DNA of 64,000 bases from an uncultured Candidatus Peribacteria bacterium (GTDB lineage Bacteria > Patescibacteriota > Gracilibacteria > Peribacterales > Peribacteraceae). The notes below the pieces were generated by a model that was given only the letters and a program-made list of their open reading frames with translations, had not been told where the DNA came from and did no database searches. Shown here piece by piece: positions 2,138 through 53,729 of the stretch. The stretch's first letter is position 1, and every line of letters starts with the position of its first letter. The DNA is taken from positions 2,116 to 66,115 of the forward strand of contig CAZKOO010000004.1 of NCBI GenBank assembly GCA_964554435.1, given 5' to 3'. Made by a program: the position numbers and the translations under genes.

Positions 2138-2446
2138 ATGTTTATCGCTCGCGAAGAACCCTTCATCTGCGAACACTGCGGAGAGCAGGTTCAGCCCTTG
2201 CTAAAGGGAACGTATCGTGACCACTGTCCAAAGTGCCTCACCTCCAAACATGTTGATCGTGATGGCCCTGGCGATCGCCTTTCAGAGTGCCTTGGTCTAC
2301 TCAAACCAATTGCCATTGATAGTGATAGTAAAAAAGGCTTTGTGATTGTGTATGAATGCGAAAAGTGCCATAAAACCCATCGCAACAAAGCAAGTGAAGA
2401 CGATGACCTTATTGGATTTCTGAAGACAATAGACAGTAGATTGTAG
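2138..2446 (+). CDS. RNHCP-domain zinc-ribbon protein
   Basis: 102 aa with CxxC pairs and an RDHCPKC motif typical of the RNHCP domain. The last codons and the TAG stop lie inside a word-repeat tract. Confidence 0.7.
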   Translation: MFIAREEPFICEHCGEQVQPLLKGTYRDHCPKCLTSKHVDRDGPGDRLSECLGLLKPIAIDSDSKKGFVIVYECEKCHKTHRNKASEDDDLIGFLKTIDSRL

Positions 2447-2511
2447 ACACTAGACTTCCTTCTCTATGTAAACCACTATTTTCTAATTTTTTTCTATAAT
2501 CTATTGTCTAT
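2429..2511. repeat. Opposed word-repeat arms forming a long stem
   Basis: Arm 2429-2447 (ATAGACAGTAGATTGTAGA) pairs with 2493-2511 (TCTATAATCTATTGTCTAT). The stem is 19 bp including 2 G-U pairs and covers the stop codon of the upstream gene. Confidence 0.7.
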
Positions 2512-2711
2512 AATCTATGATCTCGTTAAATGTAAGAATTTCCATTGATCACTAAAATTGTTCTTTTAAAAGATTATTGATTAGGGCTCAAGTCCATTTA
2601 CTTGCTCTGTAATAATTTGAGAGTAGAGTTCCGTTCCATGCAGTGGTTCGTCTTCTTCGCCCTCTTCGGCTGTTTGTTCATTTCATTTTAGTTGACACAT
2701 AGAAAATACAC

Positions 2712-2739
2712 TTGACAAAAAGTAATATGTTAGTATAAA
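2712..2739 (+). promoter_or_regulatory. Sigma70-like promoter (TTGACA-16-TATAAA)
   Basis: Lies in a 60-bp module (2669-2728) that is duplicated at 3148-3207. Sits 34 nt upstream of the ATG at 2773. Confidence 0.55.
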
Positions 2740-2772
2740 ATTGTATTAAATTTTATTATAACAAAATTCCAA

Positions 2773-3075
2773 ATGGATTTTCTTAATGAGCGGCCTAATC
2801 TTTTATTTACAGTTCATGGCAATAGTCCTGATTCTAACCAGGTGCGTTATATACATGCTTTTATATCAAACTTTAATAAAAGGGTTGGTGTCTGTTTTGT
2901 CTTGTCAGATGATTCAACACCTTATGGATCTAGTGTTCCTCATCAAACAGCTCTCAAGGGACCAATTTATGAAATAAATAGTGAAAATGCTCAATTAGAG
3001 AATTTAATTAATGAATCTATTCGAATGGCAAGGGGAATATTGATAAAAGCCGGTTATTGGGTACCAAAAGAATAA
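2773..3075 (+). CDS. Hypothetical small protein (AT-rich island)
   Basis: 100-aa ORF behind a consensus-like promoter. Loosely resembles the next ORF in layout. No recognisable domain. Confidence 0.5.
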   Translation: MDFLNERPNLLFTVHGNSPDSNQVRYIHAFISNFNKRVGVCFVLSDDSTPYGSSVPHQTALKGPIYEINSENAQLENLINESIRMARGILIKAGYWVPKE

Positions 3076-3190
3076 ATCATATAAGGAGTCAGCCTGAAAT
3101 TAAAAGAAGTTCATATAAGTATTATGATGATGTATTCTTTTCCTCATGCTGTTTGTTCATTTCATTTTAGTTGACAAATAGAAAATATAC

Positions 3191-3218
3191 TTGACAAAAA
3201 GTAATATATATATATAAT
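3191..3218 (+). promoter_or_regulatory. Sigma70-like promoter (TTGACA-16-TATAAT)
   Basis: Second copy of the 60-bp promoter module. Sits 30 nt upstream of the ATG at 3248. Confidence 0.6.
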
Positions 3219-3247
3219 GGAATCATATTATTTCCCAATATAAAAAT

Positions 3248-3610
3248 ATGTCTCAACATTTAAAAGATACTCCTACTCTCCAGACTTCGAGTGCTGGTGA
3301 ATCTATTGCAGTTATTCATGGAAAAGTACCAGGAAATCATGCTGAAAGTATCCATTACGAAGATGTATTTGCGCATATTATTGATATTTCAGATGGACAA
3401 CGAGCTAAATTTGCATTGTTCTTTACTGATTCTCCAGATTTGAATGCTCAATCATCATTATCAACCGGTGATATGATATCGGCAGCACCATTAGAAGTGA
3501 CTTTTTCAACGCTAGAAACAGGAACCCATGAACCTACTCTCGAACAGGCAATAAAAAATGCAAAAGATCAACTTCAAGCAATGAACTTAGAAGTCGTAGA
3601 AAATGAGTGA
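3248..3610 (+). CDS. Hypothetical small acidic protein
   Basis: 120-aa ORF with a promoter upstream and a perfect palindromic terminator downstream. Confidence 0.55.
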   Translation: MSQHLKDTPTLQTSSAGESIAVIHGKVPGNHAESIHYEDVFAHIIDISDGQRAKFALFFTDSPDLNAQSSLSTGDMISAAPLEVTFSTLETGTHEPTLEQAIKNAKDQLQAMNLEVVENE

Positions 3611-7386: not shown

Positions 7387-8073
7387 ATGAATCTCCTTAA
7401 AAATATCGCGATTGTTGTTGCAGGAACAAATGATGTGAGTAATACGTACTATCTTGCAGAGACAATGGCAGATGCCATGAAAGCAAAACATCCTCATCTT
7501 TCTGTACAAATCATTCGATTGAAAGATAAAAACATTCAGCAATTTACACTTGCATGCTACGGAAGTGAGTGTATATCCGATGATTGTTCTCTCATCCAAA
7601 AAATGATTGTGAGTGCAGATGGCGTCATTTTGGCGACACCAATTTGGAACTTCTCTGTTCCTGCACATCTCAAAAACTTCATCGACTGCATGGGTGTATT
7701 TGCTTTGGATGCAACTCATTCCATTGGTGTGCTCAATAAAAAGCCATTCTTCCTTCTTTTCTGCGGAGGGGCCCCAAAGAGTGCATGGCCACTCCTCAAG
7801 CGCACCACAAGTCACATAGGTGCTGCTGTGAATTATTTTGGAGGGATCATCCTTGGCACGCACTACGAAGGAAGTTGTACAAAAGGAAGAGGGCAATTTG
7901 GACTTGTGGTAAACGAGAGGCCTGCAACACTCAATGCTGTCCGTGAAAAAGCACTAGAATTTATTCGTACTATTGAGACTGTCAAGGAAACAGGATCTCT
8001 TCCTCTTCGCTATCAACTATCATTTTGGATCATTCAAAAAGCACAGAAAGTAAGGAGATGGTTAGGCTTATGA
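7387..8073 (+). CDS. NAD(P)H-dependent FMN reductase-like flavoprotein
   Basis: Flavodoxin-like fold pattern (IAIVVAGTND...ADGVILATPIWNFSVPAHLKNFIDCM). The start was chosen at MNLLKN; the ORF opens at 7372. Confidence 0.7.
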   Translation: MNLLKNIAIVVAGTNDVSNTYYLAETMADAMKAKHPHLSVQIIRLKDKNIQQFTLACYGSECISDDCSLIQKMIVSADGVILATPIWNFSVPAHLKNFIDCMGVFALDATHSIGVLNKKPFFLLFCGGAPKSAWPLLKRTTSHIGAAVNYFGGIILGTHYEGSCTKGRGQFGLVVNERPATLNAVREKALEFIRTIETVKETGSLPLRYQLSFWIIQKAQKVRRWLGL

Positions 8074-8630
8074 AGGATAATATCTCCAATATTGGCAAAT
8101 TTACAAAAGACTTTACTGAATTTTTTAATAACGAAAACTATGAATATGCCTTAATTGCAATATGTCGAGCTATTGATGCAACTGCAAAAAAAATATTTCC
8201 AAAAGAAAAACCAGGAAAAAGAATAAAGAATATGATTAAAAAATACGAAAGATTTATTTATCAATTTTGGACTACAAACTCTTTACAAGTTTCACCTGGT
8301 GCAAAGATCTTTATTGCTAAAGAAAAACAGCTCGATGATTTTATTTATCTTATAATTAGAAACTCATTAATGCATGGTGATGATTTCGATGAAAAAATCA
8401 ATATATCAAAAGAATTGGAAAATGGCATTGCATGGAACGGTGGGAAAGTTGTTATCAACAAAAAATTTGTACTATCATTATTCTTAATCGTGATCCTTGA
8501 TCCTATTAATTCTCATGAAAGGACGGATGATAAAATATGTTTTTATTTTGAAAAAAAAGAATGGATGATCAATAATTTATGGGGTAAATTTGATATTTTT
8601 TTGAAAAATATTAATTGGCCTATTAATTGA
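8070..8630 (+). CDS. Hypothetical protein with HEPN-like RNxxxH motif
   Basis: 186 aa, visibly AT-richer than the neighbours. RNSLMH (8358-8375) sits in a predicted helical context. An ATGA overlap joins it to the upstream gene, and an AAGGAG lies 12 nt upstream of the ATG. Confidence 0.5.
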   Translation: MKDNISNIGKFTKDFTEFFNNENYEYALIAICRAIDATAKKIFPKEKPGKRIKNMIKKYERFIYQFWTTNSLQVSPGAKIFIAKEKQLDDFIYLIIRNSLMHGDDFDEKINISKELENGIAWNGGKVVINKKFVLSLFLIVILDPINSHERTDDKICFYFEKKEWMINNLWGKFDIFLKNINWPIN

Positions 8631-9729
8631 TCATCACCACCTCCTCATCTACCATCCCCGCACTCTGAAAACTCTCCCATGTCTTTGCTCCACCTTCGAC
8701 GAGAATTGAGCTAATGCCAAAGAAATGATCTGTTGGAGTGGTAAGAGCTTTCCACAGAGATGGGTAATCGAAATGATTGTCGTGATATGGGATTTCGATA
8801 ATTCTCACTCCTTTCTCTTGAAGAAATTTCTTTTTTTCTTTGACATCCGCAGGTAGAAACCTGCTCCCATGTTGCCTATTCTTCATCTCATTGATTTCTT
8901 TGTTTTCTTCGATTCCCTTGATTTCTTTTACACAAAGAATTGTCCTCTCCCTCCACTCATCACTCACCACCGTTGCATCGAGTGGGATGCGAAGGTGCGG
9001 ATCGAGAATAATACGATACGGTTGAAATATTCCCTCTCCCCTCGGGAGAGGGTTAGGCCTGCCCGCCGGAGCCCGAATGGCGTAGGTGGGGTGAGGGTAA
9101 CGTACTGTTAACTTCGGATCATCACTCATAATTGTGCCAACACCAACGAGAATGGCATCATGTGTTGCGCGGAGATTGAGATGTGCCCATTGGTCCTGCT
9201 CCTCTGATGTAATCTTGAGCGGAGATCCATCACTATTCGCAATACGCCCATCGCGTGTCATTGCTTTTTTGAGCGTAATCCACGGACGGCCCTTCGTTAT
9301 GAACGACACAAAGCCACGATTGAGGTACTGACATTGAGGCAAAAGAATAGGGCCAATTACTGTTACTCCTGCATCTTTCAACATCTGAATCCCCTTTCCA
9401 GAAACTTGAGGATTTGGATCGTTCATGCCATAGATCACCGTTTTCACTCCCCTTTCGATAACCATCTGTGCACACGGCGGAGTCTTTTTGTTCGTGTGAC
9501 AACACGGTTCTAGGTTGACGTACAGAATATCATCTGAACAAATTTTTTGATCAAATTTTTCCAATAGATGACGCTCTGCATGCGCACATCCAAAGCCTGC
9601 ATGCCACCCCTGCGCAATCACTTTCTCATCTCGCACTAATACAGCGCCCACAAGAGGATTGATGCCCGTCTTTCCTCTCCCGCGCTTAGCAAGAGAAAGG
9701 CAGTGGTGGATAAAATCTTGATGGGACAT
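8623..9729 (-). CDS. ribD: Riboflavin biosynthesis protein RibD (deaminase/reductase), with repeat insertions and a short C-terminus
   Basis: Deaminase Zn motifs (HAERHLL, PCCHTNKKTPPC) and a reductase domain (DPKLTVR...ILVEGGAKTW). It ends at VVMIN, about 45-50 aa before the usual C-terminus. The start was chosen at MSHQDF. Confidence 0.8.
   Translation of the reverse strand: MSHQDFIHHCLSLAKRGRGKTGINPLVGAVLVRDEKVIAQGWHAGFGCAHAERHLLEKFDQKICSDDILYVNLEPCCHTNKKTPPCAQMVIERGVKTVIYGMNDPNPQVSGKGIQMLKDAGVTVIGPILLPQCQYLNRGFVSFITKGRPWITLKKAMTRDGRIANSDGSPLKITSEEQDQWAHLNLRATHDAILVGVGTIMSDDPKLTVRYPHPTYAIRAPAGRPNPLPRGEGIFQPYRIILDPHLRIPLDATVVSDEWRERTILCVKEIKGIEENKEINEMKNRQHGSRFLPADVKEKKKFLQEKGVRIIEIPYHDNHFDYPSLWKALTTPTDHFFGISSILVEGGAKTWESFQSAGMVDEEVVMIN
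8845..8868 (-). repeat. REP hairpin copy (GGGAGCAGG-TTTCTA-CCTGCGGAT) inside ribD
   Basis: Same family as the hairpins flanking the RAYT gene. Translated in-frame as GSRFLPAD. Confidence 0.75.
9032..9097 (-). repeat. GC-hairpin element inside ribD
   Basis: CCCTCTCCC-ctc-GGGAGAGGG (9-bp stem) followed by GTTAGGCCTGCCCGCC...GGGGTGAGGG. Related copies lie at 27396-27434, 28823-28858, 33817-33873 and 50874-50932. Confidence 0.75.
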
Positions 9730-9832
9730 TGATAAAAGTATGGCAGAAAACAGAGAATTACAAAATCCCTCAATCAAATACATTACTGCATTCAATTGAG
9801 GGATGATTGTTGTTGCTACACAGGAATAATAA

Positions 9833-10171
9833 CTACGTTAATACAAAATGATAGCCCTGATCGTATCCACTCGCCTTGAGCGAGCCGATAAGATCATCAA
9901 TGTGACATTGAAATAGATAGATCTTTCTGCCGTCTTTCAGGTCTACCATCCGAAATGGCATCAGATTCGTAGTCCAATCTTGATGCATACCAAGCGTCGA
10001 TTCATCGATTGTGTTGCGTGGATGAATCAGCAATTCTGAATTCTTCTCGATCCAAGACTCAAGCGATGTACCGAGGAGTTCGCACGCATACTCCAATACA
10101 TTTACGAGCGTTTCATTCGTCAATTCCTTGTACCACAGAGGTAGCCATCCGGCCATTCCAATTTGTTTCAT
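9833..10171 (-). CDS. Hypothetical protein (start uncertain)
   Basis: The ORF is open from 10459, but its upstream part overlaps the yerC-like frame. The start was chosen at an internal ATG (MKQIGMAGW). No domain recognised. Confidence 0.35.
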   Translation of the reverse strand: MKQIGMAGWLPLWYKELTNETLVNVLEYACELLGTSLESWIEKNSELLIHPRNTIDESTLGMHQDWTTNLMPFRMVDLKDGRKIYLFQCHIDDLIGSLKASGYDQGYHFVLT

Positions 10172-10268
10172 TCTTTTTCTCCGTTGATGAAAATGATCAA
10201 TGTCTTGTTGTGTAGCAACAACAAAATTCCCCCTCACTACGAGGAGGAACTGACATCGATCTTCTCTT

Positions 10269-10721
10269 CTACTTCTTGCCTTTTTCGAGATATTTTTGGA
10301 GCATCGATACCGGTTTCTCCCCGCGCGGGGAAGTGTGATGTGGCTCTCCATGCTGATTTTCACTCGATTTCGATCGATATTCCTGATCATCACCAACATG
10401 CAGAGCCATGCGATGATGCCGATGGGTATTGAGTACTGCTCGGTACCCACCTTCTCCATTCTCTAAGAATTTGGCAACACGCGAGACAGTCGTTGTACTT
10501 GCGCCAGTGTTTTCTGCAATATCACGATAGAAACGACCTTTGCTTAATTGCTTTGCCACTTCAAATCGCTCACTCCATGCTTGTAATTCGGAGAGAGTGC
10601 CAATATCACGCAGAAAATTTGCGAGCTCTTCTTCTGTCTCACACGATTTCATGGCAGACACCAAGGACTTAAACCACGGTTCTTTACGCCAGCCATCTTC
10701 TGTAAAACGTCGTTTAGACAT
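10269..10721 (-). CDS. YerC/YecD-family TrpR-like regulator (with unusual ~50-aa His-rich C-extension)
   Basis: SERFEVAKQLSKGRFYRDIAENTGASTTTVSRVAKFLENGEGGYRAVL matches the YerC/TrpR-like HTH core. Confidence 0.7.
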   Translation of the reverse strand: MSKRRFTEDGWRKEPWFKSLVSAMKSCETEEELANFLRDIGTLSELQAWSERFEVAKQLSKGRFYRDIAENTGASTTTVSRVAKFLENGEGGYRAVLNTHRHHRMALHVGDDQEYRSKSSENQHGEPHHTSPRGEKPVSMLQKYLEKGKK

Positions 10722-29326: not shown

Positions 29327-30069
29327 GAAGCAGGATTCTTTCCTGCGGTCCTTTTTATAAAAAAGATACTTCATATCTTCATTTCTAATGGAGTCACATC
29401 CCATTTTCATGATGCAGAAGACCAAGGATAATCAGATTGACAAAAAGCAATGCCAGCTTTCACAGGATTGGCATGAATGTATGAAAGCACATTGTGTGCA
29501 TCATCTGGAAAAAGAAGGTGAAATCGTGATTGCCAAATTGGTCCTCGATCGATTGCAAATGCAGTTCCCCTTTTGAAGGTATACAATATTTTTGAGATTG
29601 ATCCATTGTCTGGAACACTAACTAAAAGATGTACATGATCTGGCATTATTGCAAATCCATAGAGAAAAAATGGAAAAATTTGCTGAGTACGATAGAGTGC
29701 AAGGACTGCTTCATTTGCATAAGCTGGCACTGAAAAAATAGTCTCTCTGTTTTGGGTATTTGTTATAATAAACATGATGGCACTATGCTGGATAGGATGT
29801 CTTTGAAAAGCCATATGTGTCATTGTAGAACAACCGCGCGAAGGAATCGCGCTCCTGTTTGTGTAAAACTTTGATGATCTCTCAATTTTTTGCTATCTAT
29901 AATCATTTTTTTAGTTCTGTGATGAAAAAGAACAGCTTAAAAAGAAGAAATAGTGTATAAAAGAAGATGCAAGACCACGCGAAAGAATCGCGCTCCTATT
30001 GTAATAAATTGAGATAAACGGTGGCAGGCTTATCATAAAAAACGGGAGCAGGATTCTTTCCTGCGGTCC
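29327..30069 (-). mobile_element. REPtron: RAYT gene bracketed by REP hairpins
   Basis: REPs lie at 29327-29352 (+), 29833-29856 (rc), 29974-29997 (rc) and 30044-30069 (+). The consensus is GGAGC(AGG/GCG)-ATTCYTT-(CCT/CGC)GCGG. Confidence 0.75.
29407..29823 (-). CDS. REP-associated tyrosine transposase (IS200/Y1 HUH family)
   Basis: 138 aa with HUH motif MPDHVHLLV and a catalytic Tyr context SYIHANPVKAGI. Confidence 0.8.
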   Translation of the reverse strand: MTHMAFQRHPIQHSAIMFIITNTQNRETIFSVPAYANEAVLALYRTQQIFPFFLYGFAIMPDHVHLLVSVPDNGSISKILYTFKRGTAFAIDRGPIWQSRFHLLFPDDAHNVLSYIHANPVKAGIAFCQSDYPWSSAS

Positions 30070-50932: not shown

Positions 50933-50940
50933 AAGACATT

Positions 50941-53662: not shown

Positions 53663-53729
53663 CCTTCATTCATCATCCGCAGGTAGAAACCTGCTCCCTT
53701 TTTATTCTTACCTTCCTTACCTACATTAC
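53663..53729. repeat. ~70-bp module containing a REP hairpin
   Basis: CCTTCATTCATCATCCGCAGGTAGAAACCTGCTCCCTTTTTATTCTTACCTTCCTTACCTACATTAC is similar to 63293-63369. Confidence 0.7.

Follow-up and report, generated by a model that had tools for sequence, protein, structure and literature searches.

Two repeat families read in frame in one ribD gene

In a 64,000-nt stretch of DNA from an uncultured Candidatus Peribacteria bacterium of the family Peribacteraceae, in the Peregrinibacteria (hereafter the window: positions 2,116 to 66,115 of contig CAZKOO010000004.1, assembly GCA_964554435.1), a single-copy ribD gene hosts members of two dispersed repeat families, each in its own loop of the reductase domain, and each in frame and free of stops. 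A sequence-only reading of the window had proposed that one gene hosts two repeat families, both frame-preserving, and this held up, with family membership established for both. We consider it likely that ribD is a working gene under selection, that the repeats, most probably selfish or recombinogenic and passively tolerated, have spread through the genome, and that selection has retained those in-frame copies that can be tolerated in loops.

The genome, a metagenome-assembled genome (MAG) of 979 kb in 51 contigs, is colonised by several families of short structured repeats: GC-rich hairpins of the BoxC/PIT/triplex-motif type, a terminator-like hairpin with a 6-bp stem, and microsatellite arrays with 7-nt and 9-nt units. 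They occur genome-wide, genes included; the insertion mechanisms that we infer as candidates are template switching, illegitimate recombination and carriage on a nuclease-borne cassette. Purifying selection would then retain intragenic copies only when their length is a multiple of three, when their orientation and frame are stop-free, and when they fall in a tolerant surface loop. Two RibD reductase loops, one after the arginine of the LTVR motif and one before the KxxxLxxxG helix, each hold one composite insert, and the ribosome would read through both, yielding loops that are predicted to be flexible and are probably functionless. The RibD protein would presumably be made and active, with the inserts as neutral passengers.

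The ribD coding sequence (8623..9729, minus strand) was delimited by Pfam, by matches to solved structures in the PDB and by the list of open reading frames (ORFs), and comprises 368 codons and a stop. Its probable start is the ATG at 9729 (MSHQDF...), relatives beginning at the homologous MSH; the mechanical ORF (8623-9795, minus) reaches further, to a TTG at 9795. The product matches Pfam dCMP_cyt_deam_1 (4e-16) and RibD_C (7e-27), both above cut-off, and among solved structures it is closest to Bacillus subtilis RibG and to further RibDs (up to 3e-57). Both catalytic domains are present. The deaminase domain (9424..9726, minus; residues 24-124 by Pfam) has its HAE and PC..C zinc-binding motifs intact, these being invariant columns in our alignment A1, and the reductase (RibD_C) domain (8629..9285, minus), host of both inserts, ends VDEEVVMIN like all Peribacteraceae orthologues. 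When this RibD was aligned with 15 orthologues of its own family and with 34 wider homologues, the segments of both inserts appeared as insertions missing from most of the aligned sequences.

A composite triplex-motif element in the LTVR loop

Insert 1 (9029..9097, plus strand, antisense to ribD) is a long-form BoxC/PIT/triplex-motif element and is read in RibD as (Y)PHPTYAIRAPAGRPNPLPRGEG(IF). It begins one residue past the invariant arginine of LTVR (R209 in A1), adds ~20 residues relative to orthologues as a P/G-rich loop, and is in frame and stop-free, three of its six frames being open. GC content is 63-65% at 9020-9109, vs. 43-52% over most of the remainder of ribD. The sequence-only reading had seen here a GC-hairpin element translated as YPHPTYAIRAPAGRPNPLPRGEG; the peptide was borne out, with its span at 9031-9099 rather than 9032-9097, and the element does belong to a repeat family but is in fact a composite long form, bearing a second hairpin in its second loop.

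The first hairpin (9032..9052, plus) reads CCCTCTCCC-CTC-GGGAGAGGG and forms a perfect 9-bp stem, by sequence and by folding; intrastrand triplex formation is putative. The second hairpin module (9059..9086, plus; CTGCCCGCCGGAGCCCGAATGGCGTAGG), which also folded, lies in loop 2 and defines the long form, and a third purine block follows (9088..9097, plus; GGGGTGAGGG) that fits the third block of the TMECO consensus. Four elements of the genome have this second hairpin, of 28-30 nt, at the same internal position, between TTAGG and GGGGTGAGGG, and the changes in its inner stem are compensatory. One more copy of the module stands alone on another contig (C14), outside any triplex motif.

Genome-wide the GC family reads GTTCCCCTCTCCC-loop-GGGAGAGGGG-TTA-GGGGTGAGGG, for comparison with the TMECO consensus, CCCTCNCCC-N3-6-GGGNGAGGG-N3-GGGNGAGGG (PMC4666352). 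This consensus has seven strict matches in the genome and many more with 10-nt blocks, and a looser census gave ~34 unique triplex-motif loci. The ribD copy has block 1, a 3-nt loop 1, block 2 and block 3, with a second loop of 35 nt vs. the N3 of the consensus; judged by its sequence, insert 1 appears to be a long-form variant within the known BoxC/PIT/TMECO triplex-motif family.

Read-through of this family is not confined to ribD: 13 of the 34 loci are located well within long open frames, and for 12 of these the host gene is recognisable (six confirmed by Pfam). Pfam domains extend to either side of the motif in uvrC, purN, gnd and ribE and in the gene of an alpha/beta hydrolase, while carA, leuS, lysS, murD and a tsaC-like gene were identified from translations alone; the thirteenth frame, of 128 residues on contig C16, is of no recognised gene. 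In 12 of the 13 the motif runs antisense to its host, the coding strand being the C-rich one. Four of the six frames of the short motif are open, and the 7-nt arrays to which this motif is often fused have, in our own reading of their sequence, stops in all sense frames, which would explain the orientation bias.

A hairpin and a 9-nt array in the second loop

Insert 2 (8842..8928, minus) is ~87 nt long and is translated as KEIKGIEENKEINEMKNRQHGSRFLPADV, where relatives have ~6 residues; it adds ~23 residues relative to orthologues, as a K/E-rich loop. It too is in frame and stop-free (two of six frames open). The peptide GSRFLPAD, given earlier for a hairpin here, is encoded exactly by 8845-8868, and the hairpin is a member of a repeat family; the insert proved larger than had been claimed, however, with a 9-nt tandem array added to the hairpin.

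The conserved 25-mer of the hairpin family (8844..8868, plus, antisense to ribD; CATCCGCAGGTAGAAACCTGCTCCC) contains a stem-loop at 8849-8864 (GCAGGT-AGAA-ACCTGC). An exact second copy of the 25-mer lies at 53674 and a copy with three mismatches at 50937, none being expected from 100 shuffles. A genome-wide count gave 18 copies with no more than three mismatches and 13 whose 6-bp stem is perfect, with compensatory stem variants (GCAGGT/ACCTGC, GCAGGA/TCCTGC and GCGGGT/ACCCGC), and CTTTTTAT comes after many of the copies elsewhere in the genome. Copies mostly sit between genes; two others in the window, when placed on the gene map, fell between convergent genes (folP/gmk and purM), and that at purM (intergenic, 53679-53694) scored as terminator-like, with a GC-rich stem and a T-run. 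The ribD copy, antisense to its host, has no T-run and was not called terminator-like.

The array (8872..8928, minus) consists of six units, GAAATCAAG GGAATCGAA GAAAACAAA GAAATCAAT GAGATGAAG AATAGGCAA, and encodes EIKGIEENKEINEMKNRQ (the array peptide is also given as KEIKGIEENKEINEMK). It is itself a dispersed repeat, with matches of 84-92% identity on at least eight contigs. Similar arrays occupy the same loop in RibDs of relatives, and the KEIKGIKENK reading of the array sits in several other large ORFs. In-frame KEIKGIKENK-like stretches of the GAAATCAAG-type family were observed at C41:300-338, C9:22843-22877, C33:5521-5549 and C26:8402-8441.

The label of repetitive extragenic palindrome (REP), which the sequence-only reading had attached to this hairpin, had to be dropped: no copy lies within 8.7 kb of any of five Y1_Tnp matches, and the intergenic copies resemble terminator hairpins. 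A REP/RAYT reading was accordingly ruled out for want of adjacency to a Y1 transposase gene. The five matches are short ORFs (150-188 residues) of the Y1 (IS200/RAYT-type) family, one in the window at ~29548-29772 (minus) and the others on four other contigs (L150-L154).

Both loops are hotspots of insertion among RibD homologues

That the inserts sit in length-variable loops of the reductase domain, as had been suggested, was confirmed among 120 homologue clusters, where both loops are hotspots. The loop after LTVR carries at least six extra residues in 47 of the 120 clusters and the second site in 15. Many of the LTVR-loop insertions have triplex-motif-type peptides (SPEGRGE, TPLPSGEGTGV, PHPQPLPP), and those at the second site are often acidic or basic repeats of the 9-mer type (EDSEEPE, EETEESD, EGIKEIK); a hairpin peptide, GSGYLPAE, appears in a third loop in three clusters. 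At the DNA level, one relative (G011) has a short triplex motif at the insert 1 site in the same orientation, and another (G007) a decayed one. A further RibD (P0003) has the motif at loop 1 in the opposite orientation, which implies at least two independent insertion events there. Hotspot behaviour may reflect a target preference or mere survival in permissive loops.

Orthology of insert 1 with the G011 copy was considered and set aside. The family tree has 11 of its 16 inner forks open, and the CTC(G) loop of the insert 1 and G011 copies is also found in the gnd copy, so that shared ancestry and repeated insertion are inseparable.

Might the inserts have been kept for a function, as protein loops serving interaction or regulation, or as DNA or RNA structures modulating the replication, transcription or translation of ribD? 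The triplex-motif-type sequences in loop 1 of many Peribacteria RibDs would suit such a role, as would the perfect pairing of the insert 1 hairpin; the insert 2 hairpin, antisense and ~215 nt downstream of a convergent ORF, might stop antisense transcription into ribD, and triplex-motif loci are associated with genomic instability in E. coli (PMC4666352). Yet the same elements recur across a dozen unrelated genes as well as between genes, the insert peptides vary in sequence, length and orientation among relatives, and both inserts are predicted to be disordered. The hairpin in ribD, moreover, lacks the T-run and is not terminator-like, and PIT elements showed neither promoter nor terminator activity in E. 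coli (PMC4666352). We regard retention for a function as unlikely.

ribD is intact and conserved

The read-through would have no functional meaning in a decaying pseudogene whose open frame survives by accident, and several features might be taken to point that way: two insertions in one gene, a C-terminus ~40-50 residues below canonical RibD/RibG, an AT-rich, foreign-looking ORF that overlaps the ribD stop, and the lack of ribD in 16 of 41 related genomes, which suggests that the riboflavin pathway is dispensable in some lineages. The C-terminus is indeed short. This RibD does not have a full-length reductase domain with its C-terminal strands: the RibD_C match spans profile positions 1-160 of 197, and the last residue of the protein corresponds to about position 319-325 of the 373 in RibG. 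However, all 15 orthologues from other Peribacteraceae genera (16 genera compared) share this short end, and in 110 of the 120 closest protein clusters fewer than six residues follow the endpoint; because it is found in all Peribacteraceae orthologues, it is a trait of the lineage and no sign of damage. That the AT-rich ORF had truncated the gene was ruled out, since all relatives have the same end. All Peribacteraceae RibDs compared end VDEEVxLxG, without the final strands, which more distant relatives at the class level retain.

Other evidence also speaks for an intact gene. No stops or frameshifts interrupt the 368 codons, and all 63 columns invariant in the other 15 orthologues are kept (63/63), whereas most orthologues each lose one to five; the terminal branch of ribD is short, at 0.46 vs. 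a median of 0.64 in the family tree. A comparison of substitution rates with relatives, which had been proposed as a check, gave proportions of nonsynonymous (pN) and synonymous (pS) differences of ~0.27-0.33 and ~0.67-0.75, respectively, with a ratio of ~0.06-0.21; synonymous sites are saturated at such pS values, so this ratio points only loosely to long-term constraint. Another proposed check was for partners in the riboflavin pathway, and ribH, ribE and a fused ribBA are in the genome with intact frames; a complete pathway has been reported for Ca. Peribacter riflensis (PMC4736985).

An AlphaFold model (35 sequences) had a mean predicted local distance difference test (pLDDT) of 89.4 and a predicted template-modelling score (pTM) of 0.87, and superposed on RibG 2b3z, its best PDB match, with a template-modelling (TM) score of 0.75. 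The pLDDT drops below 50 only at residues 219-232, in insert 1, and at 286-290, in insert 2, and block means were 57 and 50 over residues 271-290 (insert 2); away from the inserts the fold is predicted with confidence. With intact partners, all 63 invariant residues, a short branch and pN far below pS, decay of ribD is very unlikely.

Assembly has to be considered as well: one or both inserts could be repeat-induced chimeric joins, as mis-joins classically arise at short repeats and this 51-contig MAG has a duplicated stretch on two contigs (C9 and C24). The flanks of the inserts nonetheless continue the ribD frame, colinear with orthologues, which makes a chimeric join an unlikely source, as such a join would not restore the frame. 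Records exist of two contigs that encode the identical 368-aa product, the longest of 107,740 bases, and elements of these types recur at these loops in independent assemblies of other Peribacteria. We give an artefact very little credence. A search for contigs encoding the exact RibD product returned no record, a search for related loci with RibD alone returned only distant phyla, and a search of 5.8 billion proteins found nothing above 58% identity to RibD except the protein itself.

Some observations weigh against a working gene carrying passive, neutral inserts. Pairing in the 9-bp hairpin of insert 1 remains perfect, implying recent insertion, or else DNA-level selection or conversion, which would not be expected if the process were purely passive. 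With the nearest sequenced relative no more than ~58-65% identical, the inserts are not datable. As synonymous sites are saturated, selection on ribD may also have been relaxed recently. Finally, the LTVR arginine next to insert 1 is one that we take, from RibD/RibG structures, to contact the phosphate of the substrate, and the insert may therefore carry some functional cost.

Triplex motifs at the ends of DUF559 nuclease insertions

A larger kind of in-frame insertion shares these motifs. The ribE gene of the same genome has ~190 extra in-frame residues between its two lumazine-binding domains (G000 C9:~2300-3500; L003-L006, L147), and this insertion holds a Vsr-like nuclease domain, DUF559 (PF04480, 1e-31), with inverted BoxC/triplex motifs at its flanks. 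The stretch with ribH, ribE and DUF559 was seen to be identical on C9 and C24, in opposite orientation, representing either assembly redundancy or a real inverted duplication. Another Peribacteria RibD, P0114 (L149:1501-2934, Logan SRR22315503), itself carries a motif-DUF559-motif cassette in the LTVR loop, with its motif ends verified in the DNA; synteny at this locus is conserved (Trp-repressor-like gene, ribD, FMN reductase).

DUF559 was present in 44 of 61 Peribacteraceae genomes, in up to eight copies each. Some 20 DUF559 matches fall in open frames of 340-1021 residues (loci L119-L148), and judging by frame length such domains are probably inside other genes. In 30 fetched DUF559 loci, 24 motif matches lay within 250 nt of the domain vs. 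four farther away. Within the collection of papers searched, none links DUF559 to BoxC/triplex repeats.

One tentative reading sees in the solo GC element of ribD the footprint, or a gene-less derivative, of a small mobile cassette with DUF559 between inverted BoxC/triplex ends. Such cassettes and their offspring would settle time and again in the same permissive loops of housekeeping enzymes (in RibD, the LTVR loop and two or three others), with the cassettes expressed only in frame with the host gene; we hold this to be possible rather than probable. If it were true, a class of bacterial mobile element not described before would have BoxC/PIT repeats as its ends and as its miniature offspring. 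These repeats have, to our knowledge, been without explanation since the 1990s, and the triplex motifs flanking DUF559 in ribE and in the RibD of a relative are a data point toward a possible one.

The in-frame DUF559 cassettes of ribE and of the relative's RibD superficially resemble homing-endonuclease inteins, and both ribD inserts are structured nucleic-acid elements, which raises the question of whether the inserts are excised before the mature protein forms, in the manner of an intron, an intein or translational bypass. We found no intein splicing motifs and no Rfam intron families, Rfam having no match anywhere in the window, FMN riboswitch included; and the strict absence of stops and the multiple-of-three lengths fit selection for translation, whereas excision needs neither. 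Excision therefore has almost nothing to recommend it, and translation of both inserts as part of a working RibD is the account that we retain.

Neighbouring genes

Outside the inserts, a convergent AT-rich orphan ORF (8025..8630, plus) overlaps the ribD stop codon. With 20-35% GC and 186-201 residues, it occupies the space from ribD to the FMN reductase gene and overlaps the ends of both neighbours; it is missing from the syntenic locus of P0114, where ribD abuts the FMN reductase gene, and was possibly acquired recently. On the other side of ribD, a putative coding ORF of 208 residues (9833-10459, minus) lies before the Trp-repressor-like gene, which it overlaps. Neither ORF had a match in Pfam, PHROG or PADLOC.

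Implications

These inserts suggest that "junk" repeats can reside, non-lethally, in essential biosynthetic enzymes of a streamlined 1-Mb genome of the candidate phyla radiation (CPR). In-frame repeats of this kind would affect gene calling and pseudogene calls in MAGs, and would explain part of the variation in length and of the low-complexity loops of CPR proteins. The RibD inserts may also be used as a natural map of the loops that tolerate insertion.

Comparison with known systems

Insert 1 resembles the BoxC/PIT/TMECO elements (Holder et al. 2015, PMC4666352) in its order of pyrimidine block, loop, purine block and second purine block, and in being multi-copy, dispersed and highly conserved within one genome. 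It differs in that the E. coli MG1655 motif is always intergenic (PMC4666352), whereas here 13 of 34 loci are read through in open frames; the ribD copy, moreover, has a 35-nt second loop with a hairpin of its own in place of N3, and the motif is here often fused to 7-nt arrays. The TM-DUF559-TM cassettes (TM, triplex motif) have the same motifs as inverted ends of an in-frame DUF559 (in ribE and in the LTVR loop of P0114); the ribD copy, by contrast, is a solo motif without the nuclease, and its derivation from such a cassette is conjectural.

The hairpin family of insert 2 is like the terminator-like dispersed hairpins, such as SPRITE of Streptococcus pneumoniae (PMC10969869), in its intergenic copies between convergent genes, with a T-run, but the ribD copy is intragenic, antisense and without one. 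It is like REPs in consisting of short imperfect palindromes, in 13-18 copies, mostly extragenic and with compensatory stem variants, and unlike the REP/RAYT system in that no copy is near a Y1/RAYT gene and no REPIN-type doublets were seen.

The closest parallel in behaviour is with the Rickettsia palindromic elements (RPEs; Ogata et al. 2000), as far as these are covered by the summary in PMC10969869. As there, short palindromic or structured repeats are found in frame in many unrelated housekeeping genes and also between genes, in a small host genome, and are translated as extra peptide segments that fit the host fold. For the repeats described here, insertion in unrelated protein-coding genes was found to be in frame, translation being presumed from frame preservation, and the ribD inserts lie at fold-compatible sites, the AlphaFold model being confident elsewhere and both loops being length-variable. 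The differences from the RPEs as summarised there are that the sequence families appear unrelated (set apart by description, with no comparison to an RPE consensus), that the elements are ~38-87 nt vs. ~100-150 bp, that they are modular (triplex motif, hairpin, microsatellite arrays), that some copies flank a DUF559 nuclease, and that the host belongs to the CPR, whereas RPEs are found in an alphaproteobacterial endosymbiont. By this analogy, the read-through of repeats in ribD is an example from a new lineage, with a different repeat family, and not a new principle, RPEs being already known (PMC10969869).

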